A DNA stretch of 64,000 nt from an uncultured Pelagibacteraceae bacterium (lineage in GTDB: Bacteria > Pseudomonadota > Alphaproteobacteria > Pelagibacterales > AG-422-B15), in the NCBI GenBank assembly GCA_902521655.1, contig CABYSM010000003.1, positions 15,297 to 79,296 on the forward strand. Direction: 5' to 3'. The notes below the pieces were generated by a model. The model did not search any database and had not been told where the DNA came from. It worked only from the letters and a program-made list of their open reading frames with translations. Position 1 is the first letter of the stretch; each line of letters begins with the position of its first letter. The position numbers were made by a program, and so were the translations under genes. This document shows, piece after piece, positions 2,716 to 25,519 of the stretch.

Positions 2716-3335
2716 CTCTCTCACTTTATCCAGCTTTCTTTATTTTTGCATTAATAATGGTTACAACGCCTGGACCTGCCAATCTGCTATTAATGAGTTC
2801 TGGAGCCCAGCACGGATTATATAAATCATTACCTTTTGTTGCGGGCGTTACTTTCGGAAAACTTTTTTTAACCATTGGGCTTGGATTTGGATTTTTGTCT
2901 TTATTAAATTCTAACCCATTTATAATTAATTTAATTAAAATTGCTGGAACGGGTTACATTTGCTGGTTGTCATATAAGATTATGTTCCTAAACCTAAAGC
3001 CAACTTCTAAGACAGAATTAGAAAGTATACCCAACTTTTTTAATGGTCTTTTAGTGCATCCCCTCAATCCTAAAGGGTGGGCTATGGTGATCGCCGCCTA
3101 TACTCAATTCACTTCTTTTGGAAGTGCAAGCCTAACTTCAAACTGGGCACTTGAAGTTTTAATTATAGCTTCAACATTCTTTTTAATACAATCAGTTTCC
3201 CACTCAGTATGGTGCTGGGCAGGAAGTCTCATTTTTAATTTTTTGAATCAAAAAAATCTTTTGCGTCAATCTATAGTTATTATTTTAGCAGTGCTAACAG
3301 TAGGTACTGTTATTTATAGTAACTTTTTTATCTAA
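2712..3335 (+). CDS. LysE/RhtB-family amino-acid exporter
   Basis: 207 aa with 5-6 TM segments and N-terminal TPGPANLL, typical of the LysE family. It overlaps the pdxA stop by 4 nt. Confidence 0.7.
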   Translation: MTLSLYPAFFIFALIMVTTPGPANLLLMSSGAQHGLYKSLPFVAGVTFGKLFLTIGLGFGFLSLLNSNPFIINLIKIAGTGYICWLSYKIMFLNLKPTSKTELESIPNFFNGLLVHPLNPKGWAMVIAAYTQFTSFGSASLTSNWALEVLIIASTFFLIQSVSHSVWCWAGSLIFNFLNQKNLLRQSIVIILAVLTVGTVIYSNFFI

Positions 3336-8307: not shown

Positions 8308-8948
8308 ACAAACCGTTTTTCATCTGTATAAATATTTTTAAAGTATTTTTTTACTAGTCCTTTACAAAATACGTGTGAGTACATTTTAGGATCAAATAAA
8401 ATTCTTTGCCATAACCCATCTACCATTGAGAGATAAGTCTCACTTATTTCTTTTGGGGTAAGAAAAGATTGATTATTTAAAATATTTACTTCTTTAATTA
8501 ACTTTTCCATCTGAGATGAATATATTTCATCTTGTTTTTGACAGATTGATAAATAAGAAGGACGGAACTTTACTTCACTATAGAAAGATACCCAGACTGC
8601 AATTTTATTTCTATTTGCAATTTTACTACTGAAATCATTTTCGATTATCTTAATCACTCTACCAACAGGATCTAAGTTATTATCTTCAAATATTCGTTGC
8701 CAAGAATTTTTATATTCGTCTGACAGAAATTTTAGTGAACTTAGTAAAAGATTTTCTTTAGATTTAAATCTAAAATTTGCATAGCCTTGTGATACCATTG
8801 CTTTTTTAGCAACTTGTGCAATCGTAGTATCTCCAAGACCTCTTTTAGCTATAGTTTCAATTGTTGCATCAATCAGTTTTTGATGATTGATTGAGAATTC
8901 TTGATCTTCAAGTTGATGATCACTAATTTTTTTGGGACTTATATTCAT
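8304..8948 (-). CDS. TetR-family transcriptional regulator
   Basis: N-terminal HTH is IETIAKRGLGDTTIAQVAKKAMVSQGYANFRFKSKENLL. I prefer the ATG at 8948 (MNISPKK) over the GTG at 8963 used by the ORF track. It is the first gene of a TetR-MFS-GNAT string and is divergent from the 9044 operon. Confidence 0.8.
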   Translation of the reverse strand: MNISPKKISDHQLEDQEFSINHQKLIDATIETIAKRGLGDTTIAQVAKKAMVSQGYANFRFKSKENLLLSSLKFLSDEYKNSWQRIFEDNNLDPVGRVIKIIENDFSSKIANRNKIAVWVSFYSEVKFRPSYLSICQKQDEIYSSQMEKLIKEVNILNNQSFLTPKEISETYLSMVDGLWQRILFDPKMYSHVFCKGLVKKYFKNIYTDEKRFV

Positions 8949-8990
8949 AAAAGAACCATACACAAAGTTTAATCATATGGGTAGTTTTGT

Positions 8991-12189: not shown

Positions 12190-13389
12190 ATGACACAAGA
12201 TCTTAGATATTCAGCCTTAAAGAAGACACCTTTTCATTCCAGAACCAGTATGGCTTCTCGAACTAACAAATATTATAATTGGAATGGCTACACTGTACCC
12301 ACTGAATATTCAACAACCGAGCTAGAATATACAGCAGCAAGAAATGGTACATCAGTTATGGATCTTACCCCTATGGGCAAATATGAAATTACGGGTGATC
12401 ATGCGCATAGATTTGTTGATTACTTAGTTACCCGAGACCTATCAGAAATGAAGGACAATACAGTAGCTTACATCATCTGGTGCAATGAAGATGGAAAAGT
12501 GATTGACGATGGTACTATTTTTAAATTTTCTTCAACAAAATTTATGCTGTGCTGTGCTGTTAAAATATATAACTGGCTTAACGACTCAGCTTATGGCTTT
12601 GATGTTTCAATAAGCGATGTAACAGACACTATTGCAGCATTAGCAATTCAAGGGCCAACATCGTGCTCGACTTTAAAAAAATTTGGAGCAACTGATCTTG
12701 AAAAACTAAAACCTTTTGAAATGAGAGAATATAAAATTGATGGCTTTAATATTTTAATTTCACGCACAGGATTCACTGGTGATTTGGGTTACGAATTGTG
12801 GACTGATCCAAAAAATGCAGAAACTACATGGGACAATATTGAGATTGCTGGCAAGGAGCTAAAATTAAGACCTTTTGGAATGCATGCTCTCGAAATGACA
12901 AGAATTGAAGCTGGGTTTATTCAAACCAATACAGACTTTATGGCCGCAGAAGACTCATTAAGACCAACCAGAATGAGGTCACCTTATGAAATTGGAATGG
13001 GATGGCTCGTGCACTTAAACAAGAACTCATACTTCGTTGGAAAGAAAGCTCTTAAAAAAGAAAAAGAAGAAAACACTACTGAGAGATGTTTAGTAGGTTT
13101 GGATATAGATGGAGATAAGCCAGCACATGGTTCTGTGATCTATAACAGCAAAAAAGAAGACATTGGCATTGTAACTGCAGCTCTATGGTCTCCTATTATG
13201 AAAAAAAACATTGCACTGGCTTCACTCAAGAGACCTTACGGAATAAAAATAAAAGAAAATATATTTGCAGAAATTTATCACCCTGAAGAACTTGAGTACC
13301 GTAAGATATGGGCAAGATGCAAGGTAGTGAAAAGGCAATTTTTTAACCCTGAAAGAAGAAATAAAGTTCCTGCAGATCTATATGAATAG
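12190..13389 (+). CDS. GcvT-family aminomethyltransferase-like (folate-binding T-protein fold)
   Basis: 399 aa with typical T-protein stretches: TPFHSRT, AARNGTSVMDLTPMGKYEITG, ALAIQGP, ISRTGFTGDLGYELW and LRPFGMHALEMTRIEAG. Its ATG follows the upstream TAA directly. Confidence 0.75.
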   Translation: MTQDLRYSALKKTPFHSRTSMASRTNKYYNWNGYTVPTEYSTTELEYTAARNGTSVMDLTPMGKYEITGDHAHRFVDYLVTRDLSEMKDNTVAYIIWCNEDGKVIDDGTIFKFSSTKFMLCCAVKIYNWLNDSAYGFDVSISDVTDTIAALAIQGPTSCSTLKKFGATDLEKLKPFEMREYKIDGFNILISRTGFTGDLGYELWTDPKNAETTWDNIEIAGKELKLRPFGMHALEMTRIEAGFIQTNTDFMAAEDSLRPTRMRSPYEIGMGWLVHLNKNSYFVGKKALKKEKEENTTERCLVGLDIDGDKPAHGSVIYNSKKEDIGIVTAALWSPIMKKNIALASLKRPYGIKIKENIFAEIYHPEELEYRKIWARCKVVKRQFFNPERRNKVPADLYE

Positions 13390-13413
13390 CCAAAAAATAA
13401 GGATTATATAGTA

Positions 13414-13451
13414 ATTCAATTATTGAACAGCTGTTCAATTTAAGCTATAAT
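13414..13451 (+). promoter_or_regulatory. Candidate operator plus promoter: ATTCAAT-t-ATTGAACAGCTGTTCAAT overlapping TTGAAC-N17-TATAAT
   Basis: There is an 18-bp perfect palindrome at 13422-13439 and an extra half-site at 13414-13420. The -35-like TTGAAC is at 13423-13428 and the -10 TATAAT at 13446-13451. The ATG of the next gene is at 13457. Confidence 0.5.
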
Positions 13452-13456
13452 GATTC

Positions 13457-14860
13457 ATGCCTAAATCCACATCCCAGCCTCCTATAAAAGATTTAAAGAA
13501 TACCCTAGATGATCGAATTCTTCATCCATGGCAATACTTAGAATACAGAGGTGAAGATGATCGGACATTTATTGATAAGTCTGAGGGGATTTACCTTTAT
13601 GACAAAACAGGAAAAAAACTAATTGATGGACCTGGAGGCATGTGGAATGTCAATGTTGGTCATGGTGTTAAAGAAATTGCGGATGCAGTTTACAATCAAA
13701 TTACTAAAATGCCTTACGCAAGTCCGTTTACTGAATCAACAGAAATAGCTCACAATTATGCATCAAGACTTGTTCAATATGCACCTGGTGATTTAAAAAG
13801 GATTTTTTTTACTTCTGGTGGATCGTCTGCTGTGGACTCAGCATTACGATTTGTAATGTTCTATAATAATATTCTAGGCCGAAAAGAAAAAAAACAAATC
13901 ATATCAAGAAATGATGCTTACCACGGTAGCACATTTTTAGGAGCTTCTTGCTCAGGCAAAGAAAGAGATAAAAATAATTTTGATTTCGCAAGTAATATTG
14001 TTCACCATATTTCATCTCCTAATCCTTTTCGTAAACCTGATGATCTTACTGATGAAGAATTCTGTGATCTAAAGGTTCAAGAATTAGAAAACAAAATAAT
14101 TGAAATTGGCGCTGACAAGGTTGCTGCTTTTATAGCTGAGCCTATTTTAGCTTCAGGTGGTGTGATTGTCCCACCAAAAGGTTATCATAAGAAGACACAC
14201 GAAATTTGTAAGAGACATGATGTACTGTACATTTCAGACGAAATCGTTACTGGTTTTGGAAGACTTGGCCACATTTTTGCTTCAGAAAATTATTTTGATT
14301 TCACACCGGATATTATACTTCTCGCTAAGGGGATCACATCTGGATATGTGCCTTGCGGAGCTGTTGTTATATCAGAGCGATTGATGTCCAAATTAGATAA
14401 TAAAGAGAAAGTAATTTTTTCAAACGGTTTCACAGACTCAGGGCATCCTGTTAGCATGGCCGCCGCAACTGCAACTCTGGACTACATTGAAAAAACTCAC
14501 TTACTTGATCACGTAAAAGATGTTGGCCCTTATTTTCAAGCAAAATTGAGAGAGCTCACTGATTTACCAATTGTTGGTGAAGTTAGAGGTGAAGGTCTTA
14601 TGGCCGCAGTAGAATGTGTGGGTAATAAGGATAAAAAAGATCCACTGAATTTATCTTACGAGATTGGTTCTAGGATTAATGAGCATTGCCAGCAATTAGG
14701 TTTAATCGTACGACCATTATTTAGTACATGCGTCATGTCACCGTCATTAATTATCACGAAGGAACAAGTTGATGACCTTGTTTCTATTTTGCGTAAAGGC
14801 ATAGAGTTAGCAACAGATGATATCAAAAAAGAAGGTCTCTGGTCAGCAACTTCAAATTAA
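13457..14860 (+). CDS. Class-III PLP aminotransferase
   Basis: 467 aa with DAYHGSTFLGASCSG, DEIVTGFGRLGHIFAS and ILLAKGITSGYVPCG. Confidence 0.8.
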   Translation: MPKSTSQPPIKDLKNTLDDRILHPWQYLEYRGEDDRTFIDKSEGIYLYDKTGKKLIDGPGGMWNVNVGHGVKEIADAVYNQITKMPYASPFTESTEIAHNYASRLVQYAPGDLKRIFFTSGGSSAVDSALRFVMFYNNILGRKEKKQIISRNDAYHGSTFLGASCSGKERDKNNFDFASNIVHHISSPNPFRKPDDLTDEEFCDLKVQELENKIIEIGADKVAAFIAEPILASGGVIVPPKGYHKKTHEICKRHDVLYISDEIVTGFGRLGHIFASENYFDFTPDIILLAKGITSGYVPCGAVVISERLMSKLDNKEKVIFSNGFTDSGHPVSMAAATATLDYIEKTHLLDHVKDVGPYFQAKLRELTDLPIVGEVRGEGLMAAVECVGNKDKKDPLNLSYEIGSRINEHCQQLGLIVRPLFSTCVMSPSLIITKEQVDDLVSILRKGIELATDDIKKEGLWSATSN

Positions 14861-16098
14861 TGACCTTTTTTAATCAACTTAAAGAAAGATATGAAGAAGG
14901 AAAGACTCTTCCGCAAGAGTTTTATACTGACGAAGAAATATTTTCTGATGAAATGAAAAAAATTTATTTCAAGCAGTGGCTGATGGTTGATCATGTTAGC
15001 CGTATTCCAAATCCTGGAGATTATTTTTTATTTAATGCAGAAAAAGAGTCAATAATCCTAATACGTGGAAGGGATAGTCAAGTTAGAGCTTTTTACAACG
15101 TTTGTTCTCATCGTGGTTCAAGAATATGTTTGGAAGAAGAAGGAACAAAAAAACTGTTAGTTTGTCCATATCATGCTTGGAGTTTCTCCGCAGAAGGCGA
15201 GTTAAAGTCAGCACGCTACATGCCAGATGATTTTAAAATGGAAGATTGGGGTTTAAAGCCTTGTCATATGAATATCTATCAAGGCTTGATATTCATAAAT
15301 CTCTCAATGGATGAACCAATGGATTTCAATGAGTTTATTGCCCCATTGACTGAGCTTGTAAATTTTCATAATCCTGAAAAGGCAAAGATTGCTGCTAGAC
15401 GAAAATATCCTACGAAAGCTAATTTCAAACTTGTCCTAGAAAATTTCCAAGAATGCTATCACTGTGGTCCAGCACATCCAGAGCTATGCTCAGTACATGA
15501 AAAAGACTGGGTATACACAATGGGTGCCGGTGTTGGAACGGCCCCAGAAAAAGAAACACAAGAATATTTAAAAAAGATTCAACCATGGATTGAGGATTGC
15601 AAAACAAAAGGAATCCCCTCAAAAACATATTTAGAAACTGAAGAAGGATTAAGTAAGGGATTAAATCGATACGTAGACCGTACACCCATCGGTAATGGAA
15701 ATTTATCACAAACTAAAGATGGCAAACCAGCCTCTAAACTAATGGGTCAGTTTAAAGAATTTGATGGTGGTTTATCCCAAGTAAGTTTTAATCCTTTTAG
15801 CTGTTGTTACTTTACAAATGATTTTGGAGTTATGTTTATATTTAAACCATTATCAATTTTTCAGTCTGAAGTTGAATTGATTTGGTTAGTCAATGAGGAA
15901 GCTGAAGAAGGCAAAGATTTTAATGAAGAAAACCTTACTCACATATGGGACGTAACCACTGCACATGACACAACCATTATTGAAAATAATCAAAATGGTT
16001 TGTTGTCTCATTCATTTAGTCCTGGAGTACTCTCACAGAACGAGTCTGCCGTTACGTATTTTTATGATTGGTATTTTACCAATATGAGACTACCATGA
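14860..16098 (+). CDS. Rieske [2Fe-2S] non-haem-iron oxygenase, alpha-type subunit (GbcA/Stc2/CntA-like class)
   Basis: 412 aa. Rieske ligands are C82-S-H84 ... C102-P-Y-H105 (CSHRGSRIC...CPYHAWSF). The mononuclear-Fe motif is ENFQECYHCGPAH (H201-x4-H206). Its start overlaps the upstream stop (TAATG). Confidence 0.8.
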   Translation: MTFFNQLKERYEEGKTLPQEFYTDEEIFSDEMKKIYFKQWLMVDHVSRIPNPGDYFLFNAEKESIILIRGRDSQVRAFYNVCSHRGSRICLEEEGTKKLLVCPYHAWSFSAEGELKSARYMPDDFKMEDWGLKPCHMNIYQGLIFINLSMDEPMDFNEFIAPLTELVNFHNPEKAKIAARRKYPTKANFKLVLENFQECYHCGPAHPELCSVHEKDWVYTMGAGVGTAPEKETQEYLKKIQPWIEDCKTKGIPSKTYLETEEGLSKGLNRYVDRTPIGNGNLSQTKDGKPASKLMGQFKEFDGGLSQVSFNPFSCCYFTNDFGVMFIFKPLSIFQSEVELIWLVNEEAEEGKDFNEENLTHIWDVTTAHDTTIIENNQNGLLSHSFSPGVLSQNESAVTYFYDWYFTNMRLP

Positions 16099-16115: not shown

Positions 16116-17471
16116 ATGAAACAGCTGTACAACAAGGATATTTACGACGTTAATAAACCAGTAGAAAGTTATTGGGAAGAGGTCAGCAGCATTGACCAAA
16201 ATAAGTATCCAGAATTAGTTGGAGATCAATCATGTGATGTATGTGTCATTGGAGGCGGTTTTACAGGCATTAGTACGGCTTATCATATTGCAAAAAATTA
16301 TGGTGGAGATGTAAGAGTGTTAGAATCTGGGCACTATGGTTTTGCAAGTAGTGCAAGGAATGCGGGTTTTTGCTGTCTACCAGCTACAAAGTTATCTACC
16401 ACACAATTAATAAAAAAGTTCGGTATGGAAGAGACTAAGAAATTTTTTTCATCTCAAATTGAAGGCGTTGATCTTCTTGCATCTATTATTTCAGAAAATA
16501 ATATTGATTGTGAAAAAGTAGGTGATGGCAACCTTGATGTAGCTCACCATCCAGGAAGCAGTGAAGAATTAAAAGAATGGGGAAATGAATTGAAAGAGTA
16601 TTTTGGTATTAATACAAAATGGATACCTAAAGAAGAATTTGATGAAGTTGGACATCAATCAACTGAACAATTTGGGGCAGTATTTACAGAGGCTGGATTT
16701 GCAATGAATCCCATGGCGTTTATGCGAGGCTTTGCATCAGCAACTGTAGATGCAGGTGCAAAATTACATAGTTTTTCAAGAGTAAAAAAATGGGAGAGAA
16801 ATGGGTCACATAAGCTAATAACAGATGGTGGATCAATTACTGCAAATAAAGTTGTAGTAGCAACAAATGGTTACACTGATGAGTCGCTCCATCCAAGTTT
16901 TGCTAATCGAATGATGCCAGTCCTATCAAATATTATTGTTACCAGAGAAATGAGTGATGATGAATTTAAGTTGCAAAACTACAAAACTTTAAATCCCATA
17001 TGTAATTCTAGAGAAATTTTATATTATTACAGAAGAATGCCTTCTAACAGAATGTTGTTTGGCACAAGAGGTGATACTTATGGTGATGATGCAAGTGCAC
17101 TAAAAATGAGAGAATTTATGACTCAAAAATTTAGAGGCGTTTTTCCTCATTGGAATAATATTGATATTGATCACTACTGGAGAGGTACAGTTGTTATGAC
17201 CAGAGATTTTGTACCTGCATTTGGCGCATTGGATGACGACAAGTCAGTCTTATTTTCATATGGCTATCAGGCAAATGGTAACAATACTACAGTTTATTGT
17301 GGAAAGAAGCTGGCTGAAATGATTTACGAGTCAAATAGTGGAGAAACGAATATATCAAAAGTCTATCAAGGACTCTCTCCAAAAATACCATTAGGTTTTT
17401 TAAGATTATGGTATTTAAGACTATATCTATGGTATTCAAACTTTACAGATAAAAGTAAAAAAGAAATATAA
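16116..17471 (+). CDS. FAD-dependent oxidoreductase, DAO family (PuuB-like gamma-glutamyl-amine oxidase type)
   Basis: 451 aa with the dinucleotide fold DVCVIGGGFTGISTAYHIAK. Length and layout fit PuuB/DadA-type flavoproteins. Confidence 0.65.
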   Translation: MKQLYNKDIYDVNKPVESYWEEVSSIDQNKYPELVGDQSCDVCVIGGGFTGISTAYHIAKNYGGDVRVLESGHYGFASSARNAGFCCLPATKLSTTQLIKKFGMEETKKFFSSQIEGVDLLASIISENNIDCEKVGDGNLDVAHHPGSSEELKEWGNELKEYFGINTKWIPKEEFDEVGHQSTEQFGAVFTEAGFAMNPMAFMRGFASATVDAGAKLHSFSRVKKWERNGSHKLITDGGSITANKVVVATNGYTDESLHPSFANRMMPVLSNIIVTREMSDDEFKLQNYKTLNPICNSREILYYYRRMPSNRMLFGTRGDTYGDDASALKMREFMTQKFRGVFPHWNNIDIDHYWRGTVVMTRDFVPAFGALDDDKSVLFSYGYQANGNNTTVYCGKKLAEMIYESNSGETNISKVYQGLSPKIPLGFLRLWYLRLYLWYSNFTDKSKKEI

Positions 17472-17507: not shown

Positions 17508-18392
17508 ATGTTACAAGTTTGGAAGTCTTTTTATGCAAGGAGTGATCCTGCAAAAGCTTATTCACTTCTTTCTCCTGCATTGATTCTAGTTACTTTAGCT
17601 ATGCTTATACCTTTAGGGCTAATGTTGAGTTTTAGCTTTTTCACTCAAGTTAGCTTTACTGAAATTGACTACTCTTTCACCATTCAAAGATATATTGATT
17701 TTTTTCAAAAGAACTTGCTTGTCTCTTTACTTATAAAATCAGTGAAGATTTCGTTTATCGTAACTTTCGTAACTCTCCTTACTGCATATCCTGTCTGTTA
17801 TTACATAGCTTTTTATGTAAAGAAAAATAAAATGTTATGGCTTGTTTTACTGACATTACCTTTCTGGACATCTTATCTTTTAAGGGTTTTTTCCTGGAAA
17901 ATTATACTTGGAACTAAGGGAGTTATTAATTCTTCTTTAATTAATGCAGGACTGCTTAGCGAACCTCTCACTTTTCTAATGTATTCTGAGACTGCAGTTA
18001 TCATAACGCTTACCCATGCATGGGCAGCATTTGCTTTATTACCTTTGTACGTATCATTGGATAAAATAGATTTTTCTCTAATTGAAGCCGCCAGAGACTT
18101 AGGATTGTCAAGATTAGAAACTTTTTGGAAAATTACACTTCCTTTATCTCTTCCTGGAATCATTGGTGCCATACTAATTATCTTTATTCCAACAGTAGGA
18201 GATTATGTTACTCCTGCTTTACTTGGAGGAACTGATGGGAGAATGCTATCAAATATGATCCAAGCTTACTTTGGAAAAGTAAACAATCTTCCTCTTGGTG
18301 CTGCGTCTGCAACCATTATGCTCATTACTGTTGCGATAGTGACAATGATCGTTTCATATACAACAAAAAAACTTACTCAAAGGATTTCTTAA
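17508..18392 (+). CDS. ABC transporter permease, PotB-like
   Basis: 294 aa with 6 TM segments and the EAA-loop region IEAARDLGLSRLETFWKITLP. Confidence 0.8.
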   Translation: MLQVWKSFYARSDPAKAYSLLSPALILVTLAMLIPLGLMLSFSFFTQVSFTEIDYSFTIQRYIDFFQKNLLVSLLIKSVKISFIVTFVTLLTAYPVCYYIAFYVKKNKMLWLVLLTLPFWTSYLLRVFSWKIILGTKGVINSSLINAGLLSEPLTFLMYSETAVIITLTHAWAAFALLPLYVSLDKIDFSLIEAARDLGLSRLETFWKITLPLSLPGIIGAILIIFIPTVGDYVTPALLGGTDGRMLSNMIQAYFGKVNNLPLGAASATIMLITVAIVTMIVSYTTKKLTQRIS

Positions 18393-19208
18393 GTGGAACA
18401 AAAGAACAATACATTGTTAATCTACACATTATTGTATTTTGCATTTTTATATATCCCTGTTTTATTCTTGCCAATATTTAGCTTTAATGATGCAAATTAT
18501 ATGTCATTTCCACTTTCAGGATTTACAACAGAGCATTATGAAGAAATGTGGGCAAAAACAAATTTACATAAAGCTCTTTGGGCTAGTATCAAAGTAGGTA
18601 TAGTTGCAAGTGTTGTCAGTACAACAATTGCACTTTTCGCAGCCAAAGCATTTGCACGTTATAAATTCAGAGGGCAAAATATTTCTTACGGGGCCATTAT
18701 GATTCCTTTTTTAATTCCAGAAATTATTTTAGCGGTTGCAATACTTGTTATTTGGTTAAGCCTTGGTTTTAAATTAGGACTTGTACCGGTAACTTTAGGA
18801 CATATTCTTTTTTGTACTCCATTTGCAATGCTTATTTTAATTGCTCGTATAGAAGGCTTTGATTTCTCACTAGAGGAAGCATCAAGAGACCTTGGGGAAA
18901 ATGCCTGGGGGACATTTTATCGAGTATCTCTTCCATTATATCTACCAGGTATAATTGCCTCACTTTTATTGAGTTTTATAATTTCATTTGATGAATTTGT
19001 TCTTGCGTTCTTCTTAACTGGAAGCGATGCAACATTGCCCATGTATATGTGGGCTCAAATGAGATTTATTCAGAAACTACCGCATGTGTTGGCTTTAGGT
19101 GCGGTTATAATTGTGTTTACTACTTTTATAGTTTTGTTAGCATTCTGGTTGAGAAACCTTGGTCAAGGAAAAGAGAAAGCTGAATTTGGAATAAAAATAC
19201 ATGAATAA
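18393..19208 (+). CDS. ABC transporter permease, PotC-like
   Basis: 271 aa with a GTG start directly after the upstream TAA. The EAA loop is EEASRDLGENAWGTFYRVSLP. Confidence 0.8.
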   Translation: MEQKNNTLLIYTLLYFAFLYIPVLFLPIFSFNDANYMSFPLSGFTTEHYEEMWAKTNLHKALWASIKVGIVASVVSTTIALFAAKAFARYKFRGQNISYGAIMIPFLIPEIILAVAILVIWLSLGFKLGLVPVTLGHILFCTPFAMLILIARIEGFDFSLEEASRDLGENAWGTFYRVSLPLYLPGIIASLLLSFIISFDEFVLAFFLTGSDATLPMYMWAQMRFIQKLPHVLALGAVIIVFTTFIVLLAFWLRNLGQGKEKAEFGIKIHE

Positions 19209-20283
19209 TTCTTTCATACAGATAAACGGAATTTCAAAGCATTTTGGAAATGTTAAAGCGGTAGATGATGTCTCTTTTCAAATCAAAGAGGGAGAGTTTT
19301 TCTCTCTACTCGGCCCATCGGGTTGTGGTAAAACAACTTTACTGAGATTGCTTGCCGGCTTTGAGTACCCAACTAGTGGCAACCTATTACTTGATGGCAG
19401 TGATATTACAGCATTACCTCCTGATAAAAGACCTACAAATATGGTTTTTCAGAATTATGCAATTTTCCCACATATCAATGTTGAAAAAAATGTTCAGTTT
19501 GGTTTGAGAAAACTTGGCTTAACAAACGATGAAATTATCAAAAGAGTTAAGGATGTTTTGTCGTTGGTTAAATTAGAAGGTTATGAGGAACGCTATAGCA
19601 GCCAACTATCCGGGGGTCAAAGACAAAGAGTGGCATTAGCGAGAGCTTTAGTAAGGCAGCCTAAAGTATTATTGCTGGATGAGCCACTTGGAGCATTAGA
19701 TAAAAAGTTACGTGATGAAATGCAACTCGAACTAAGAACTCTTCAAAAAGAGATTGGAATAACTTTTGTATTCGTTACACATGATCAGCAAGAAGCCATC
19801 AGTATGTCTGATCGAGTTGCGGTGATGAGTGAAGGCAAAATTCAGCAGATGTCATCTCCAAATGAGTTATATAAAAACCCTCAAAATATTTTCGTGAGTG
19901 ACTTTATTGGTGAAACTAATTTTTTAAAAGCTAATACAGGGTCAAAGGATGGAGAATATATTAATGTTAACATTGAAGATCTTGGTTCGTTCAAAATAAA
20001 GAATAATCTCAATATAAGTGAAAATGCCTCAGAAGTTATTTGCAGTGTTCGTCCAGAGACTATGATGATAGACACAGAAAAATCAGACTGGGATATTTGC
20101 TTAGAAGGTAAAATTAAGCAAACATCATATTTGGGTGAAATGACAAAATTTTATGTTGAAACAAAAGAAATAGAAAAAATTATAACTGTATCATCACAAT
20201 ATTTTGATAATCAGTCTTTCCAAGATAGCAAATGCTTTATCAGCATAAACTTAGCTGATATTTCCTTACTAAATAAAAAATAG
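19201..20283 (+). CDS. ABC transporter ATP-binding protein, PotA-like
   Basis: 360 aa with Walker A GPSGCGKTT, signature LSGGQRQRVALARAL and Walker B LLLDEPLGALD, plus a C-terminal regulatory/TOBE-like extension. Confidence 0.85.
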   Translation: MNNSFIQINGISKHFGNVKAVDDVSFQIKEGEFFSLLGPSGCGKTTLLRLLAGFEYPTSGNLLLDGSDITALPPDKRPTNMVFQNYAIFPHINVEKNVQFGLRKLGLTNDEIIKRVKDVLSLVKLEGYEERYSSQLSGGQRQRVALARALVRQPKVLLLDEPLGALDKKLRDEMQLELRTLQKEIGITFVFVTHDQQEAISMSDRVAVMSEGKIQQMSSPNELYKNPQNIFVSDFIGETNFLKANTGSKDGEYINVNIEDLGSFKIKNNLNISENASEVICSVRPETMMIDTEKSDWDICLEGKIKQTSYLGEMTKFYVETKEIEKIITVSSQYFDNQSFQDSKCFISINLADISLLNKK

Positions 20284-20334
20284 CCTGTCCTCAAGAGAGA
20301 ACAAGCTATTTTAAATTAGTTAACTAGTAGTGTA

Positions 20335-21423
20335 TTAGCCGCCAGCTACCATTTCAGCCCACTGAGCTTCCATGTAGTCAGTCACTTCGTCAGACGGCAT
20401 CACAGAGAACATTCCATTATTTAAATGTTCGATAGGATTTGATGCAACTCCACGTTCAGCTAATTCGTCAGCTGTAAGTGTGCTAAATCCAGCTTTATTA
20501 CTGTGTCCATAACCCCACTCACTTAATAAGTAAGCAGATGTTTCAGCACTAGTAGCACCATTGATCATCGCGTATGCTTTATCAAGGTCTGCACCTTTAA
20601 CAATCGCAAGACCACATGCCCAAGTCATTGTGCCATTGGAAGGCTGCATCATTTTTGCACCTGCACTCCATGCTATTTCGTTCCATCCAAGAGCTACGTC
20701 TATTTCTTCGTTACCTAGCGCTTCGATCATTGAAGAAGTATCTCCAAAGAATGCACGAATTTGACCATTGTCTCTCATTTCACGAAACTTATCGATACCT
20801 TGATCAATTGCAGCTTTTGTTAATTGATCTTGCTCTCTTATGTCAATTCCAAGATGGTGCATCATTAAAAATAATGAGTCTGCAGCAGAGTCTAAAATAC
20901 CTACTTTACCTTTTACTCTTGGGTCTTCCATTAGAGCAAAGCTTTCATTTGAGGCGTCCATCCAATCAATCCTGTCTGCCATGTAAAACAATGTAGTATC
21001 TCCCCAGTCGACTGGCGCAAAATAATGCTTACCATCAACCATGCCACTTGGCAGGTCTCTAACTTCAGGGAACATGTCATTCCAGTTTTCAATTCTTGAT
21101 GGATCAAGCGGCTCTAATACGCCTGCTCTTACCCATCTTTTTATTTCACCTTGACATGGCCATGCTAAGTCAACTTCAAAGCCTGCTTTTAGTTTTTGCA
21201 ATCCTTCTTCAGCATCACCAAATATTGAGTATTCAGGGGAACCGTGCTCTTCAGCGTATGTTCCAAATAGACCATCATCATCGTAGCCACCCCACAGGAA
21301 TACAGATCCTGGCTCATCTGCAAAAGCTTTAGTTGTTGACGTTACACCAGCGATAAAAACAAACGATAGTGATACAATCAAAGCTTTTACAAAAGAATTT
21401 TTCATTTCTTTGTATTTTGGCAT
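20335..21423 (-). CDS. Periplasmic substrate-binding protein of a PotD/PotF-type ABC importer
   Basis: 362 aa with a signal peptide ending TKAFA|DEPGS. It is an acidic, Trp-rich mature protein, convergent with the potBCA-like genes. A GAGGAAG Shine-Dalgarno lies 7 nt before the ATG. Confidence 0.7.
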   Translation of the reverse strand: MPKYKEMKNSFVKALIVSLSFVFIAGVTSTTKAFADEPGSVFLWGGYDDDGLFGTYAEEHGSPEYSIFGDAEEGLQKLKAGFEVDLAWPCQGEIKRWVRAGVLEPLDPSRIENWNDMFPEVRDLPSGMVDGKHYFAPVDWGDTTLFYMADRIDWMDASNESFALMEDPRVKGKVGILDSAADSLFLMMHHLGIDIREQDQLTKAAIDQGIDKFREMRDNGQIRAFFGDTSSMIEALGNEEIDVALGWNEIAWSAGAKMMQPSNGTMTWACGLAIVKGADLDKAYAMINGATSAETSAYLLSEWGYGHSNKAGFSTLTADELAERGVASNPIEHLNNGMFSVMPSDEVTDYMEAQWAEMVAGG

Positions 21424-21490: not shown

Positions 21491-22987
21491 TTAAAGGGGA
21501 ATCAAGGGACGATTTTTGTTTGAATTAAGCCATGGATCTAACATTTCGTAGTTGTACCCACCCTGGAATACTAATTCATCGCTGTAAGATCGAGCAATAA
21601 TTTGGATTCCTGTTGGAATATTGCTAGAACTTAATCCTGAAGGGACTGATAGGACCGGTAATTTACCTAACATATTAAATGGATGTGACATGACCCAAGA
21701 AAAATCTGCACACTTCTGCTCTTTATTATTGATAATGATATTTTCATTAACAATATCAATATCAGCCTTAATTGAAGGTAAGGAGTTTGTAGGACATATA
21801 AATAAATCGTAACTGTCTAATATTGGTCCAATTTCTGAATACATTCGGCCTGTGATCTCTGAGCTTTCAATAACATCATATCCAACATAAGCCCCTATTT
21901 GATCATGATAGTACTTCTCATTATTTTGTATCGCTCTGATATGTAATTCAGGGACTTCAGCAAACATTTTTGCATAATCAGTTAATAGTTTTTTTTCATC
22001 GTTTGAAAATTTTGCTATTAGGCCATAAAATGAATTAGCGTAATGACTAAAGCAAACTGAATTTACTTCATCTCGATTCCAATTTAATTTTACTTCTGTA
22101 ATTGTTGCACCAAGAGCCTCAAATTTTTTTAGAGCCTCCAATGTATTTTTTTCAACTTCTTCATCCACCTCAAAAAATCCAAGATCAAGTGAATAAGCAA
22201 TTTTCCAGTTCTTAATATTCTCAAACTTATTAGGAATAATTTTTTTGGGTCTGAGTGAAGCAATATCATTTTTATTTGGACCACTCATAACATTTTGCAT
22301 AAGGGCACAATCACTAACTGTTCTCGCAAGGGGACCAACAACACAATACGGATCGTGATTAAAAGGATAACCCATTGGATTTCTTCCATAGGGAGGTTTG
22401 TAACCAACGACTCCGCAGGCCCCAGCAGGGATACGAATTGATCCACCTATATCACTACCAGTTGCAAGTGATGCACAACCCGACGCTAGTGCAGCAGCAC
22501 TCCCCCCACTTGAACCTCCCGGTGTCATATCTAAGTTCCAGGGATTTCTTGTGACGCCATTAACTTTGGAATGGCAGAATGATGTAAGTGAAAATTCTGG
22601 GTTAGTTGTGCGTGCATGAATTATTGCACCAGAGCTTACAAGGGACTCTACATCTACATCAGTTCCTTCTGCTATTACGTCTTTATAGATTAAGCTTCCA
22701 TTCTTATTAGGTTGTCCCTTTATATTAACTTCATCTTTAATTGCTAAAGGTAAACCTTCCAAAGGCAAAGTAGATTTATCTTCTGTATATTTTAATTCTG
22801 AATGTTTCGCTTCTTTCAATGCTTCTTCAAAGCGAAAAAAATTAAAAGCATTAATTTTTGGGTTTACATTTTCAATTCTTTTTATTGTCTCATTTAATAG
22901 CTCAACTGGAGACAAAGATTTATTTTTAAATTTTTCCAGGGCTTCAGAAGCTGATAAATAACAAATATCGAGGTCTAAACTACTCAT
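21491..22987 (-). CDS. Amidase-signature (AS) family amidase
   Basis: 498 aa with the AS motif GGSSGGSAAALASG, GSDIGGSIRIPA and the upstream catalytic Lys context LAIKDEV. Confidence 0.85.
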   Translation of the reverse strand: MSSLDLDICYLSASEALEKFKNKSLSPVELLNETIKRIENVNPKINAFNFFRFEEALKEAKHSELKYTEDKSTLPLEGLPLAIKDEVNIKGQPNKNGSLIYKDVIAEGTDVDVESLVSSGAIIHARTTNPEFSLTSFCHSKVNGVTRNPWNLDMTPGGSSGGSAAALASGCASLATGSDIGGSIRIPAGACGVVGYKPPYGRNPMGYPFNHDPYCVVGPLARTVSDCALMQNVMSGPNKNDIASLRPKKIIPNKFENIKNWKIAYSLDLGFFEVDEEVEKNTLEALKKFEALGATITEVKLNWNRDEVNSVCFSHYANSFYGLIAKFSNDEKKLLTDYAKMFAEVPELHIRAIQNNEKYYHDQIGAYVGYDVIESSEITGRMYSEIGPILDSYDLFICPTNSLPSIKADIDIVNENIIINNKEQKCADFSWVMSHPFNMLGKLPVLSVPSGLSSSNIPTGIQIIARSYSDELVFQGGYNYEMLDPWLNSNKNRPLIPL

Positions 22988-23039
22988 AAGATTATTTTAT
23001 TTTAATTTATTAATTAATAAAATATATTGAATTCACACC

Positions 23040-24134
23040 ATGATTGATCAAAACATTAGAGACATTATTAAAAACCAAGACCCTTATACAGGAATGGATC
23101 AGCTTTTTTTCACTAACAAAGCATTGTTTGATCTAAGTTATGAGGCTGTTTTCAAGAAACAGTGGGTATTTCTTACTCATCTATCTTATTTTAATGAAAA
23201 CAATACATTCATTTATCAAATTAATGGCGGATTTGTTGAAATAAAAAAGTCTAAAGATAATAATTTAACTATCTCATCATCTTTACCTGATTTCAAATTT
23301 CATTTAAAAGTTTATGAAAGCTTAATTTTTGTCAACTTTTCTGAAGTACCATATTCATTTGAAGAATTCATAAAACCACTAGAACCATATATTAAAATTC
23401 ATGGCCTGAATGACGGCAAGATCGCATTTCAAAAAGACTTTATATTTAATGCTTCTCATCTCGCAACCATTCACAACTTCAAAGAATGTGCACATTGTTG
23501 GGGAGGCGAGTTTACTCACAAAGATTATTTAAGTGTTCATGGAGAGGCGTATTGTAATTCTTATGGAGCTGGGGTTGGCTCAGGAATTGAATCTCCTGAA
23601 TTCAATCAACGTATAAAAGATTGGACATTTGAAAGTCAAAATAAAGGTTTGTTTGTTGGCGAGTACAGTGAAGACACCAATAAATATTTTAGAATTGCAG
23701 AGCGCACTCCTTTACCTGAAGGCATACTGTCTGAGACAATGGATGGTAGCTATTCATGCTCTTCATTAATGGGTGACTTTAAAACTATAGGACCAGATAA
23801 TGGTTATACCGCTATTGGTTTTAGCCCATTCAATAGCTTTGTTGCCAATAATGAATTTGTAATTCTTTTTTTATTTACTCCTGTTAGTCAAAATAAAACA
23901 ATCGTTACTCAATATTGGGTTACTCACAAAGATGCTGAAGTTGACATTGATAAAATGATTTTTCTTTGGGACCAAACATCAACAGAAGACTCCCAATTGT
24001 GTGAAATGAATCAAAAGGGCATTGAAAGTCGAGCTTATCAGCCTGGAAAGTATGGCGAACTTGAGACAAGTTTGGTTCAATATCAAAAGTTCTATCTAAG
24101 TCATTTACAAAATCACGTTAATGGACTGACTTAA
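23040..24134 (+). CDS. Rieske-oxygenase alpha-subunit paralogue lacking the Rieske cluster ligands (catalytic SRPBCC-type domain only)
   Basis: 364 aa and collinear with the 14860 protein (FKKQW, LIFVNF, NFKECAHC, ERTPLPEG..L..T.DG, WDQTSTED..NQ). It has no Cys in residues 1-149 and carries a deletion of about 40 aa where CxH...CxxH should be. The Fe motif is altered to H152-x7-H160. Confidence 0.65.
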   Translation: MIDQNIRDIIKNQDPYTGMDQLFFTNKALFDLSYEAVFKKQWVFLTHLSYFNENNTFIYQINGGFVEIKKSKDNNLTISSSLPDFKFHLKVYESLIFVNFSEVPYSFEEFIKPLEPYIKIHGLNDGKIAFQKDFIFNASHLATIHNFKECAHCWGGEFTHKDYLSVHGEAYCNSYGAGVGSGIESPEFNQRIKDWTFESQNKGLFVGEYSEDTNKYFRIAERTPLPEGILSETMDGSYSCSSLMGDFKTIGPDNGYTAIGFSPFNSFVANNEFVILFLFTPVSQNKTIVTQYWVTHKDAEVDIDKMIFLWDQTSTEDSQLCEMNQKGIESRAYQPGKYGELETSLVQYQKFYLSHLQNHVNGLT

Positions 24135-24148
24135 GTCAGAGATATAAA

Positions 24149-25519
24149 ATGAAAGTTGCTACACAAGCTGAATTTGATGAAGTATTAAGTCAGCACAATA
24201 ATATTCAATATGTCGATGCAATCTTCACAGATTTATGTGGTTATGTAAGAGGAAAACGTTTCCCCGTCCTTGAAGCAAATAAAATTTTTTCAGATGGCGT
24301 TCTTCTCCCATTCTCCGCATTTTATCTAGATGTTCTAGGAGGAGTAACAAACACCCTAAATCTAGGTTGGACAGATGGTGATCCTGATGGTGTTCTGGTT
24401 CCTGTTAAAGGAAGTATTAAGCCAGTCCCGTGGGATGAACGCTTCTTACAGGTATTAATCACAATGAGAAAAGAGCAAGAAAATTGGGGAGTGATACAAG
24501 ACCCATCTGAGGTTGACCCTAGAAATATTCTAAAAAAAGTTATGAAGAATTTTAAGAACACTGGATTGAAGCCTGTGGTTGCTTTTGAATTAGAATTTTA
24601 TCTTTTAGACAAAAATAGGGATGAGTTTGGGAAACCAATACCTGCTGAAGGTGCTAATAAAACTCATGTTTATGGCATACCAGACCTTGATCTCTTCGGT
24701 AAGTTATTTGATGATATTAACAAGAATTGCGAAATGCAAAATATACCAGCGACTACTGCTTCAAGTGAATTTGCTGCGGGACAGTATGAAATTAATCTAA
24801 AGCACACTGGAGATCTTCTAAAAGCCGCAGATGATGCTGCTTTATTAAGACGTATTATTAAAGAGACAAGTGAACGACATGGCTATGAAGCAACATTTAT
24901 GGCAAAACCCTTTCTAGATCAAACTGGTAATGGAATGCATCTTCATCTCTCCGTTTATGATGAAAATGAAAAAAATATATTTGCTACTTCCAATCGTTAC
25001 GGAAATAAAAAATTAAAAAGTGCTATAGCTGGTTTTCAATCAATGTTTTATGATAGTTTTCCAATCTTTATTCCAAATCGAAATGGTTACAGAAGAATAG
25101 AAACAAGAAATTTCGTTCCTGTTAATACAAGTTGGTCCTGGAATCGAAGAGATGTTTCATTAAGAATACCAGCTGGATCAAATGACACAAAAAGAATTGA
25201 ACATCGCGTAGCTTCATCAGATGCTAATCCTTATCTAGTCCTAGCATGCTTATTAGCAGGGTTGCATAATGGCCTTACTAATGAATTGACCCCATCGAAC
25301 CAAGTTGATTTCGATAATAATGAAGGAGCGGATAAAGAAGCTGATATTGATATGCCAAAAAATATGGACCAAGCGTTAGCGCGTTTCCAATCTTCCAAAC
25401 TATTAAAAAAATATCTTGGGAAAGAATATCTTGATCTTTACACTGCTGCAAAACAAGGTGAAATTGATCATGTCGAGTCAAGTTTTGTTCCTCGAGAGGA
25501 ATATGATCTCTATTTATAA
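24149..25519 (+). CDS. Glutamine synthetase-family ligase (PuuA/GmaS-like gamma-glutamyl-amine synthetase type)
   Basis: 456 aa with GS catalytic-domain stretches: EFAAGQYEINL, KPF..QTGNGMHLHLS, RIPAGS...RIEHRV.SSDANPYL. It has no GlnA-type adenylylation loop that I can recognise. Confidence 0.75.
   Translation: MKVATQAEFDEVLSQHNNIQYVDAIFTDLCGYVRGKRFPVLEANKIFSDGVLLPFSAFYLDVLGGVTNTLNLGWTDGDPDGVLVPVKGSIKPVPWDERFLQVLITMRKEQENWGVIQDPSEVDPRNILKKVMKNFKNTGLKPVVAFELEFYLLDKNRDEFGKPIPAEGANKTHVYGIPDLDLFGKLFDDINKNCEMQNIPATTASSEFAAGQYEINLKHTGDLLKAADDAALLRRIIKETSERHGYEATFMAKPFLDQTGNGMHLHLSVYDENEKNIFATSNRYGNKKLKSAIAGFQSMFYDSFPIFIPNRNGYRRIETRNFVPVNTSWSWNRRDVSLRIPAGSNDTKRIEHRVASSDANPYLVLACLLAGLHNGLTNELTPSNQVDFDNNEGADKEADIDMPKNMDQALARFQSSKLLKKYLGKEYLDLYTAAKQGEIDHVESSFVPREEYDLYL

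Follow-up and report, generated by a model that had tools for sequence, protein, structure and literature searches.

Within the 64-kb window (the whole stretch of DNA analysed here), the gene at 23040..24134 encodes a protein that, judging from alignments, descends from a Rieske oxygenase through loss of its [2Fe-2S] cluster site. The protein is homologous to Rieske-bearing oxygenases, the deletion is clean, the catalytic residues are conserved, the gene is under purifying selection and its synteny is fixed. The reading that we favour, tentatively and short of calling it probable, is that of an oxygenase that remains active at a mononuclear iron, receives its electrons in trans and serves an amine catabolic island of the gamma-glutamylation type.

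A Group V oxygenase homologue lacking the Rieske cluster ligands

The gene, the remnant of its Rieske domain and the Rieske-bearing paralogue in the same window are located as follows.

23040..24134, + strand: Rieske-less Group V oxygenase homologue, 364 aa; intact ORF with ATG start, matching PF00848 only
23040..23297, + strand: Rieske-domain remnant, residues 1–86, from single-gap alignments and predicted strands
14860..16098, + strand: Rieske-bearing Group V paralogue, 412 aa (Pfam Rieske + Ring_hydroxyl_A)

The 364-aa product, labelled 'SRPBCC family protein' in annotations elsewhere, was collinear with the 412-aa product of 14860..16098 (the 14860 paralogue) in BLASTP (27% identity, E 4e-46). 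Profile–profile alignment of the Rieske-less family with its Rieske-bearing relatives (hhalign) extended over residues 1–363 (probability 100%, E 2.1e-85). A preliminary description of this DNA had proposed the collinearity by eye; both methods agree with it, and all five motif matches quoted there were found. MAFFT and hhalign each placed a single 49-residue gap between residues 81 and 82 of the Rieske-less protein (deletion junction at codons 81/82, ~nt 23280–23285). The gap corresponds to approximately residues 81–129 of the 14860 paralogue and takes in both cluster-ligand loops, C82-x-H84 and C102-x-x-H105. The formal alignments (BLASTP, MAFFT and hhalign), proposed earlier as a check, thereby confirmed the deletion and the ligand loss; the deletion lies at the paralogue's CSH...CPYH segment as first described, but its size is ~49 residues rather than ~40. 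Cysteines are present only at positions 150, 153, 172, 240 and 321, and residues 1–149 are Cys-free, as had been noted.

The Rieske-less protein matched Pfam PF00848 (46.4 bits against a cutoff of 24.9) and did not match PF00355 even at E ≤ 1, whereas the 14860 paralogue matched both. The Rieske oxygenase family is recognised by the ligands of its two metal centres (PMC10952381). Of the features of a Group V alpha subunit, the C-terminal (SRPBCC) catalytic fold of Rieske oxygenase alpha subunits is present (PF00848, Foldseek) and the N-terminal [2Fe-2S] ligand set, C-x-H...C-x-x-H, is absent. The AF2 monomer model (pLDDT 90.5) had its top Foldseek matches in the uncharacterised 3n0q, Stc2 and CntA (TM 0.82–0.85), which were also the best PDB matches by sequence. 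hhalign showed homology between the first 80 residues and the first half of the Rieske domain, and the alternative that the N-terminus is unrelated to a Rieske domain, raised in the preliminary description as a ground for abandoning its reading, was rejected. Strands were predicted at residues 43–47, 56–61, 64–70, 76–80 and 88–92, in a part of the model (residues 1–90) where mean pLDDT over 10-residue blocks was 87–97. Alignment and model together indicate that the remnant retains the N-terminal helices and basal beta-strands and that the cluster-binding subdomain has been excised.

The predicted iron site is conserved and remodelled

Two segments of the catalytic domain carry the residues that align with the mononuclear iron site.

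23475..23540, + strand: iron-site segment N146-F147-K148-E149-C150-A151-H152-C153-WGGEFT-H160-KDY...H167, from alignment columns; by alignment, the bridging Glu, both Cys of the Group V pair and the two His ligands (x7 apart) lie here
23988..24002, + strand: D317 (aligned with the iron-triad carboxylate, invariant in all sequences) through C321

H152, H160 and D317 align with the 2-His-1-Asp triad and are invariant, with the two His separated by x7/8 instead of x4 in a region of local pLDDT 66 (residues 151–160, the lowest-confidence part of the AF2 model). The preliminary description had read the pair as H152-x7-H160 against H-x4-H in the 14860 paralogue, and alignment bears this out; of 48 distinct members of the Rieske-less family, 43 have x7 and the other 5 have x8. 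Across this family and its Rieske-bearing relatives N146, E149, C150, H152, C153, H160, H167, W310 and D317 are all invariant, and position 147 (E-2; F147 here) is always aromatic. E149, the bridging carboxylate three residues ahead of the first His (22/22 aligned sequences), is the equivalent of CntA E205, a bridging Glu needed for intersubunit electron transfer; CntA Y203 makes a pi-cation contact (PMC7948474). The Group V Cys-x-x-Cys pair around the first His is present as C150/C153, equivalent to CntA C206/C209 and Stc2 C202/C205. In CntA the Cys206/Cys209 pair holds the catalytic iron as Fe(II) and has been proposed to re-reduce it, and Stc2 Trp353, the equivalent of W310, touches the product (PMC10952381).

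The changes around the first His ligand are specific to the Rieske-less clade. It has a 3–4 residue insertion between the His ligands, S-H-L-A in place of the otherwise invariant N-W-K-L beside the first of them, and K and D in place of P161 and E162. A literature search for a role of the NWK motif found nothing. Three Cys, C172, C240 and C321, are invariant in this clade specifically and hint, at the level of sequence, at altered chemistry. The last of these, C321, is Ile or Thr in relatives; at D317+4 it would sit one helical turn from D317 in the modelled helix 303–329.

The gene is intact, under purifying selection and widespread

Orthologues of the Rieske-less gene were found in 44 Pelagibacteraceae species genomes, and every full-length orthologue was intact (43/43, 362–366 aa). 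Its dN/dS was 0.058 for the whole gene; the catalytic domain gave 0.041 and residues 148–175 gave 0. Comparator values were 0.038 for the 14860 paralogue (0.041 for its catalytic domain), 0.04 for the glutamine-synthetase-like (GS-like) gene and 0.024 for the DAO gene (both described below). For the remnant, dN/dS was 0.12 over residues 1–86 and 0.21 over residues 41–86, versus 0.02 for the paralogue's intact Rieske domain. In metagenomes the Rieske-less family has thousands of member sequences, and the two paralogue families resemble each other in abundance and identity ladders. In lineages L020–L022 and L027 the Rieske-less protein is 81% conserved, compared with 58–66% for flanking genes. 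A long stem branch leads to the Rieske-less clade in the tree. Some representatives consist of the catalytic domain only (~280 aa, e.g. P0117); these are on ~1-kb contigs and may be truncated gene calls.

Loss of the defining cofactor site could in principle reflect a decaying pseudogene or an assembly artefact. However, the intact copies come from different species, dN/dS is low, metagenomic members number in the thousands and the protein is better conserved than its flanks in L020–L022 and L027; decay was rejected on the intact ORFs in 43 genomes together with dN/dS, and we consider its probability practically nil. The preliminary description had argued against a pseudogene from the scarcity of non-coding DNA, and ~95% of the window is indeed coding. 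Frameshifts, which it had named as one sign of decay, were not seen in the 43 full-length copies.

A fixed neighbourhood in a putative amine island

The genes surrounding the Rieske-less gene and its paralogue are listed below.

3328..4092, − strand: peptidase C26 / GATase, a PuuD-like gamma-glutamyl hydrolase (Pfam PF07722)
8304..8963, − strand: TetR/BetI-type repressor at the head of the cluster (Pfam TetR_N + TetR_C_6, BetI-type)
12190..14860, + strand: GcvT-like aminomethyltransferase and class-III aminotransferase, upstream of the 14860 paralogue (Pfam, NCBIfam)
16116..17471, + strand: DAO-family FAD amine oxidoreductase in a PuuB-like position (Pfam DAO)
17508..21423, mixed strands: ABC importer (Pfam, NCBIfam); both permease genes and the ATPase gene are on +, the gene for the PotF-like binding protein is on −
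21491..22987, − strand: amidase-signature amidase (Pfam Amidase), divergent from the Rieske-less gene across a 52-nt intergenic region
24149..25519, + strand: GS-like ligase, a PuuA/GmaS-type gamma-glutamyl-amine synthetase homologue (Pfam Gln-synt_C)

The GS-like ligase starts 14 nt downstream of the Rieske-less gene; its matches to NCBIfam GlnA, type III GS and gamma-glutamylputrescine synthetase were all below cutoff. It lies directly downstream in 44/44 genome loci and in all six metagenome loci L001–L006. The amidase is beside the Rieske-less gene in 40/40 genome loci having the upstream flank and is missing from the most divergent lineage (L001–L003), where the Rieske-less gene and the ligase remain paired. 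The 14860 paralogue, which carries the sole Rieske motif of the window in a motif scan, lies ~8.2 kb upstream wherever the flank is long enough (33/33 genome loci). The co-occurrence survey suggested in the preliminary description therefore found a Rieske-bearing copy alongside the Rieske-less gene at each of these loci, and gene order was likewise kept in metagenome contigs. The DAO gene adjoins Rieske-bearing relatives in other lineages too. The island also holds an aldehyde dehydrogenase and aminotransferases and resembles the Puu putrescine pathway in having PuuB-, PuuC- and PuuD-like genes (gene names, PMC8437039).

Search for an electron donor

Motif scans for ferredoxins and Rieske centres took in the full 64 kb together with ±10 kb around 50 related loci; of the window's 59 non-nested ORFs of ≥120 aa, 50 were scanned with Pfam for partner domains. 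These scans found neither a reductase nor a plant-type ferredoxin near the Rieske-less gene, and no second Rieske protein and nothing GST-like. For a cognate NAD(P)H reductase of the CntB/GbcB type, there was no plant-type ferredoxin motif in the window or the 50 related loci and no FNR-type domain among the 50/59 scanned ORFs. An NdmD-like reductase with an extra N-terminal Rieske domain was also not found, each locus having one Rieske motif, which belongs to the oxygenase paralogue; nor was a GST domain (NdmE-like) among the same 50/59 ORFs. Nearby NdmCDE-type partners (Rieske-reductase, GST) were rejected on the basis of these motif and Pfam scans.

Comparison with known systems

The preliminary description had recognised nothing of this kind as described, and in this it was mistaken: NdmC, a non-heme-iron monooxygenase of Pseudomonas putida CBB5, has been characterised and has no Rieske cluster; it relies on the one borne by its reductase NdmD and performs N-dealkylation (PMC4408171, PMC10380055). 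Like NdmC of the NdmCDE N7-demethylase in the caffeine pathway, the Rieske-less protein is a cluster-free oxygenase subunit of apparent Rieske-oxygenase ancestry. NdmC is accompanied by the Rieske-bearing paralogues NdmA and NdmB in one catabolic cluster, much as the Rieske-less gene is by 14860. Unlike for NdmCDE, no Rieske-reductase or GST was found among the scanned ORFs of the window, and no Rieske-reductase motif within ±10 kb in the 50 related loci. NdmC did not appear among the PDB matches to the Rieske-less protein. The ~85-residue Rieske-domain remnant, H-x7/8-H and the Group V amine lineage also set the protein apart from NdmC as the latter is described. NdmC is the one known precedent for a Rieske-less oxygenase, from which the SAR11 protein differs in partners, remnant and iron helix; a literature search for others, or for the SAR11 protein itself, found no relevant description.

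The best sequence and structure matches were Group V monooxygenases: Stc2 (stachydrine demethylase, 3vca/4qup), CntA (carnitine monooxygenase, 6y8j), GbcA and 3n0q. The Rieske-less protein shares with them the E-C-x-H-C signature, the aromatic at E-2, the Stc2-W353-like Trp, an Asp at the position of their iron ligand and an amine-catabolic gene context. It differs from them in the loss of the cluster ligands and cluster-binding subdomain, the x7/8 His spacing, SHLA for NWKL and the three extra invariant Cys. Membership in GbcA (glycine betaine monooxygenase, NF058607 equivalog) was rejected at 135.7 bits against a cutoff of 670; the 14860 paralogue, at 307.4 bits, was also below this cutoff.

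Gamma-glutamylation pathways for aniline and 1-naphthylamine combine a Rieske dioxygenase with a GS-like ligase and a protein resembling amidohydrolases; the genetic coupling of a GS-like ligase to an oxygenase-type protein and an amide hydrolase is common to them and the island described here (PMC11335346). The oxygenases of those systems are aromatic dioxygenases of two subunits (alpha/beta), which have intact Rieske centres and their own reductase, whereas the Rieske-less protein is of the alpha-only Group V type and has no cluster.

Other Rieske-less relatives exist. P0072 (annotated Pirellulales), P0130, P0060 and P0074 are full-length Group V-like proteins without CxH...CxxH, some of which lost the ligands through a similar internal deletion. 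They have independent origins on the tree and retain NWK and H-x4-H. P0060, P0072 and P0130 are rare (1–4 member sequences each), and some of the four may be recent losses or decaying copies; the Pelagibacteraceae clade, by comparison, is both old and abundant and has been remodelled further. For the nearest Rieske-bearing 'sister' (P0024 type), a shared GS-like partner was rejected, its ligase being only 32% identical. The oxygenase of this type is 49% identical to the 14860 paralogue and 36% to the Rieske-less protein; given these identities, its neighbour-joining sister placement may be a long-branch or composition effect.

Proposed function and electron route

We infer the iron binding, O2 chemistry, substrate class and electron route of the Rieske-less protein as follows. 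A duplication within low-GC marine Alphaproteobacteria would have been followed by excision of the cluster-binding subdomain, the remaining N-terminal domain and the whole SRPBCC catalytic domain then being held under strong selection. The protein would bind one Fe(II) through H152, H160 and D317 and activate O2. It would probably hydroxylate or N-dealkylate its substrate, either an amine or the gamma-glutamyl-amine that the neighbouring ligase would produce. It would form one step of an island comprising the ligase, DAO oxidase, aminotransferases, aldehyde dehydrogenase, PuuD-like hydrolase, amidase, GcvT-like C1 acceptor and ABC importer. Since the protein itself lacks a [2Fe-2S] centre, the second electron would have to arrive in trans, through the retained bridging Glu149, from a Rieske centre or ferredoxin on a separate polypeptide; the NdmCDE precedent supports such a supply by analogy.

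The only local donor candidate is the 14860 paralogue, which would need a mixed trimer. Such a mixed oligomer, already suggested in the preliminary description, would fit the strict co-location of the two genes and the presence of the bridging Glu. Going by the general architecture of Rieske oxygenases, the neighbour's cluster would dock at the region by the first His ligand. The segment remodelled here (insertion, NWKL to SHLA) would thus face that cluster, which weakens the mixed-trimer idea; canonical Rieske docking, and with it the mixed trimer, may no longer apply. The 27% identity between the paralogues is also low for mixed trimers. At least as likely would be a ferredoxin or reductase from elsewhere in the genome that docks where the cluster subdomain used to be.

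A Rieske-independent route to Rieske-oxygenase-type chemistry, in which the remodelled helix and three new Cys would go with an iron reduced by a soluble ferredoxin, a thiol network or the substrate, seems to us rather doubtful. We know of no Rieske-oxygenase catalytic domain that runs self-sufficiently. The protein might nevertheless be an iron oxidase or dioxygenase drawing all electrons from its substrate (four-electron oxidation or dioxygenation) or from active-site thiols, and several observations would fit: the lack of an electron-transfer partner in the window and 50 related loci, the remodelled iron helix with C172, C240 and C321 on top of the Group V Cys pair, the predicted placement of C321 one turn from D317, the re-reduction proposed for the CntA pair (PMC10952381), and the long stem branch, which is consistent with neofunctionalisation. 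Against it, E149 is invariant and its sole documented role is intersubunit electron transfer (PMC7948474), although the whole block around it is conserved. On balance we regard full self-sufficiency as unlikely.

Departure from redox chemistry altogether, also proposed in the preliminary description, would make the protein an SRPBCC-fold binding protein or a Lewis-acid metal hydrolase, lyase or isomerase acting on a gamma-glutamyl or amide intermediate. The tight coupling to the GS-like ligase and the adjoining amidase fit such a role, and the lost relay and changed His spacing could suit another metal or geometry. However, what has been retained is redox-specific, namely the bridging Glu and the Fe(II)-keeping Cys pair (PMC7948474, PMC10952381); the island already has an amidase and a PuuD-like hydrolase; and one lineage does without the amidase yet keeps the Rieske-less gene and the ligase together. 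We accord this role a small probability. A non-catalytic structural or regulatory subunit of the Rieske-bearing paralogue, the third of the earlier proposals, would account for the strict co-location and similar family abundance. It is hard to reconcile with invariant iron ligands, Cys pair and pocket residues, with a catalytic domain whose dN/dS is the same as in the active paralogue, and with an operon-like pairing to the ligase instead of the paralogue 8 kb away, and we judge it very improbable.

Implications for Rieske oxygenases and SAR11

In Rieske oxygenases, by definition, electrons must be relayed between subunits, from a [2Fe-2S] cluster to a mononuclear iron. The Rieske-less protein, strongly conserved and abundant in the environment, is a natural experiment on how far that relay is dispensable, the cluster having been discarded and the iron site, bridging Glu and Cys pair kept. 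If the chemistry is in fact Rieske-independent, the iron cost per subunit would fall from 3 Fe to 1 in an iron-starved, genome-streamlined ocean bacterium. SAR11 is among the most abundant bacterial groups in the ocean, and both iron economy and the use of dissolved organic nitrogen are ecologically relevant for it. The Rieske-less protein and its GS-like ligase form a concrete target for expression and assay, and the gene marks an uncharacterised, apparently important step in SAR11 amine/polyamine-type nitrogen catabolism.

Loss of the Rieske ligand loops

The window is AT-rich (GC ~0.34) and ~95% coding, and positions 23040-24134 (+) hold an uninterrupted ORF for a 364-aa protein. In BLASTP this product aligned collinearly with its 412-aa Rieske-bearing paralogue (14860-16098, +; hereafter the 14860 paralogue) at 27% identity (E 4e-46), and the alignment contained all motif pairs quoted in the preliminary description, whose homology claim thus held. 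The 14860 paralogue matched PF00355 and PF00848; for the 364-aa protein the PF00848 catalytic domain was the sole Pfam match, with no Pfam Rieske domain detected when the threshold was relaxed to E <= 1. When 15 members of the Rieske-less family were aligned by profile to 13 Rieske-bearing relatives (probability 100%, E 2e-85), residues 1-363 aligned with a single gap of 49 residues, between residues 81 and 82. The sequence absent there corresponds to C82-x-H84 ... C102-x-x-H105 of the paralogue and the strands after them, and the first of the protein's cysteines (150, 153, 172, 240 and 321, the complete set) is C150. Pairwise and profile alignment therefore confirmed ligand loss and a deletion at the CSH...CPYH position, although its size is ~49 residues and not about 40 as first estimated. 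The cluster subdomain has been cleanly excised. Because the profile alignment is collinear around this one gap, the first ~80 residues are a homologous Rieske-domain remnant and not unrelated sequence.

The AF2 model had a pLDDT of 90.5, dipping only at residues 151-160, an inserted loop (pLDDT 66). Its closest PDB structures were 3n0q, Stc2 (TM 0.82-0.85 for these two) and CntA, the same top proteins as in a PDB sequence search. Membership of the Rieske oxygenase family is defined by conservation of the ligands at both metal centres (PMC10952381); lacking the Rieske ligands, the protein falls outside that family and, judged by sequence, represents a Group V derivative without the Rieske site.

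The putative mononuclear iron site

Residues N146, E149, C150, H152, C153, H160, H167, W310 and D317 were invariant with the Rieske-bearing relatives. Position 147 was aromatic throughout (of 47 distinct sequences in a motif scan, 46 had F and 1 had W; F also in P0010, a 48th homologue beyond the scan matches). The equivalent of E149 is CntA E205, the bridging Glu required for Rieske-to-iron electron transfer, and that of F147 is CntA Y203, which makes a pi-cation contact with the quaternary ammonium (PMC7948474). C150 and C153 correspond to CntA C206/C209 and Stc2 C202/C205, the Group V Cys pair proposed to hold the catalytic iron as Fe(II), and W310 to Stc2 W353, a product contact (PMC10952381). 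From the conservation of these equivalents, all mononuclear-iron surroundings typical of Group V quaternary-amine monooxygenases appear to be kept.

Other changes are specific to the clade. The His pair is re-spaced, as had been noticed for the single protein: of 48 family sequences, 43 had a spacing of x7 and 5 a spacing of x8, against x4 in the relatives. Residues 139-142 read S-H-L-A in place of N-W-K-L, which was invariant in the Rieske-bearing relatives compared, bar one with Phe for Trp. Further swaps are P161 -> K, E162 -> D and D272 -> E. All five cysteines are invariant family-wide, three of them (C172, C240 and C321) new in this clade; C321, at D317+4, would sit one helical turn from D317 in the modelled helix 303-329.

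Conservation and selection

Orthologues at 67-99% identity were found in 44 Pelagibacteraceae/Pelagibacterales genomes (one genome per species scanned), and close matches to the window in species-representative genomes came exclusively from single-cell or metagenome-assembled genomes of this group. The family's entries in the protein database number about two thousand, at 59-98% identity, and carry the annotation 'SRPBCC family protein' in one case. Each of the 43 full-length copies inspected (the window copy, 40 genome-scan copies and 2 on metagenome contigs) was an open reading frame of 362-366 aa; with a dN/dS of 0.058, this upholds the earlier argument against a pseudogene, a reading that can practically be dismissed.

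Table. dN/dS by gene and region (Nei-Gojobori, pairs with 0.1 < dS < 1.5)
Rieske-less gene, whole: 0.058
Rieske-less gene, catalytic domain: 0.041
Rieske-less gene, residues 148-175: 0
Rieske-less gene, N-terminal remnant 1-86: 0.12
Rieske-less gene, residues 41-86: 0.21
14860 Rieske-bearing paralogue, whole: 0.038
14860 paralogue, Rieske domain: 0.02
14860 paralogue, catalytic domain: 0.041
GS-like gene: 0.04
DAO gene: 0.024

The iron-site signature is kept under strong selection. Both catalytic domains gave 0.041 and are therefore under equal constraint, with or without the cluster; the remnant domain is ~ten-fold more relaxed than the intact Rieske domain, yet still under selection. In one lineage (L020-L022, L027), compared with window positions 21491-27919, the Rieske-less protein shares 81% identity with its window counterpart and the flanks are far more diverged, at 65-66% (amidase), 58-62% (GS-like ligase) and 65-68% (ECH and EamA); either the flanks were shuffled by recombination or constraint on the Rieske-less gene is exceptionally strong.

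Genomic neighbourhood

A glutamine-synthetase-like (GS-like) ligase gene starts 14 nt downstream of the Rieske-less gene; it scored below cutoff for the GlnA, type III GS and gamma-glutamylputrescine synthetase models. The two genes were paired in 44/44 genome loci and in 6/6 additional loci from metagenome assemblies (L001-L006): the partnership is fixed. A divergent amidase gene was present in 40/40 genome loci having the flank and absent from the most divergent lineage (L001-L003). Wherever the flank was long enough (33/33 loci), the block of the 14860 paralogue lay ~8.2 kb upstream, so that a Rieske-bearing copy always accompanies the Rieske-less gene, a co-occurrence raised in the preliminary description, and their co-location is fixed. 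With the paralogue are a DAO-type FAD oxidase, a class-III aminotransferase, a GcvT-like protein and an ABC importer; farther out lie a second aminotransferase, an aldehyde dehydrogenase and some of the following:

3328-4092 (-), PuuD-like peptidase C26 / GATase gene
8304-8963 (-), BetI-type TetR repressor, divergent from the cluster-head genes
9044-13389 (+), cluster head: two tandem CrtO/phytoene-desaturase-like (amine-oxidase fold) FAD proteins and a GcvT-like aminomethyltransferase
25522-26235 (+), free-standing AlaX-type alanyl-tRNA editing domain protein (AlaXM model 201.6 bits, cutoff 300)

Taken together, ligase, amidase, paralogue block and outer genes make the region look like a gamma-glutamylation-type amine catabolic island holding two Group V oxygenase-type proteins. 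Two cultured SAR11 strains lack the final gamma-glutamylation enzyme in a published reconstruction (PMC8437039); since a PuuD-like gene is present here, the window lineage may have a more complete route.

The AlaX-type gene directly follows the ligase in the same orientation and is kept in most orthologous loci (missing in L020-L022, L027 and L001-L003). It is odd in an amine-catabolic operon; the substrate of its product could be an intermediate of aminoacyl or gamma-glutamyl type instead of tRNA. The top NCBIfam match of the GcvT-like protein was the C-terminal half of TMAO demethylase, and the five-gene block (TetR, two FAD proteins, GcvT-like etc.) recurred in related contigs L092-L095. 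Between the oxygenase paralogues, the ABC transporter cassette (equivalents of 17508-21423) varies independently of its flanks: its binding protein is only 40% identical in L035 and L048, and in L032, L043 and L052 the permeases are 95-98% identical with oxygenase genes at just 76-80%, which suggests exchange by recombination.

Origin and other Rieske-less proteins

In a neighbour-joining tree the Pelagibacteraceae Rieske-less sequences formed one long-stemmed clade within Rieske-bearing Group V-like proteins. The nearest Rieske-bearing sequences (P0024/27/33, from marine contigs of 27-29% GC) shared 36% identity with the Rieske-less protein and 49% with the 14860 paralogue; our interpretation is that this lineage was duplicated, with deletion and accelerated change afterwards. 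Homologue clusters of the 14860 paralogue showed an abundance and identity ladder similar to the Rieske-less family's, which fits co-inheritance.

A full-library profile search returned other Rieske-less proteins, P0072 ("SRPBCC family protein", Pirellulales) with P0130, P0060 and P0074, which retain NWK and H-x4-H. Because they fall elsewhere on the tree, the cluster was lost several times independently. Those looked up (P0060, P0072, P0130) are rare clusters; the SAR11 clade alone is both old and abundant and has been remodelled further. These proteins (P0060 in L089, P0072 in L087) and P0149 are independent Rieske-less Group V-like cases in other phyla; in P0074 the ligands went by substitution, not deletion, and a gene for a LigXa-type Rieske oxygenase lies 2 kb downstream of that for P0060. 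P0095 joins a Group V catalytic domain to a C-terminal FNR-like reductase module; this fragment lacks its N-terminus and may represent an oxygenase fused to its own reductase in a self-contained enzyme. P0264 (L096/L097), annotated as a Pelagibacteraceae '(2Fe-2S)-binding protein', represents a third type of Group V Rieske oxygenase, neighboured by three agmatine-deiminase-like genes, two GS-like ligases, an aminotransferase, a DAO oxidase and a CN-hydrolase. Group V oxygenases paired with a GS-like ligase and a DAO oxidase are a recurring, uncharacterised theme in Pelagibacteraceae.

Possible mechanism

Our tentative reading, quite possibly correct, is that the Rieske-less protein would activate O2 at its mononuclear iron and act on a cationic amine, or a gamma-glutamyl-amine produced by the neighbouring GS-like ligase, with the second electron supplied in trans through E149. 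Trans supply has a known example in NdmCDE, where NdmC lacks a Rieske cluster and uses that of the reductase NdmD, with NdmE as a GST-like scaffold (PMC4408171, PMC10380055). The preliminary description had recognised none of its three readings as described; NdmC is a precedent for cluster loss, and our literature search found no paper describing the SAR11 protein. By its description, NdmC would be closest in working mode, but the SAR11 protein keeps a Rieske-domain remnant and has a re-spaced iron motif. Neither an NdmD-like Rieske-reductase nor an NdmE-like GST was found in the window, which argued against NdmCDE-type membership: motif scans of the 64 kb gave a single Rieske motif and no plant-type ferredoxin motif, and no FNR-type reductase or GST was found among the window ORFs scanned with Pfam. 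Within 10 kb either side, 50 related loci had no ferredoxin motif and no Rieske motif beyond one per locus.

Locally, the candidate donor would be the 14860 paralogue, in a mixed trimer. This arrangement is unlikely and makes up the smaller part of trans supply; against it, the paralogues are just 27% identical, and the insertion and NWKL-to-SHLA change adjoin the first His ligand. In the general Rieske oxygenase architecture, the neighbour's Rieske cluster contacts the face beside that ligand, and by analogy the remodelled segment would be this face. No less likely as donor is a ferredoxin or reductase whose gene lies elsewhere. Departing from trans supply, the protein might be a self-sufficient oxidase/dioxygenase or a thiol-assisted enzyme, which we consider improbable, or, with similarly little probability, a non-redox SRPBCC enzyme; a non-catalytic subunit is more doubtful still.

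Loss of the cluster has precedent; the surprise is an abundant SAR11 enzyme with all redox features of the iron site and no visible electron relay. The case is directly testable, and may bear on ocean iron economy and organic-nitrogen use.
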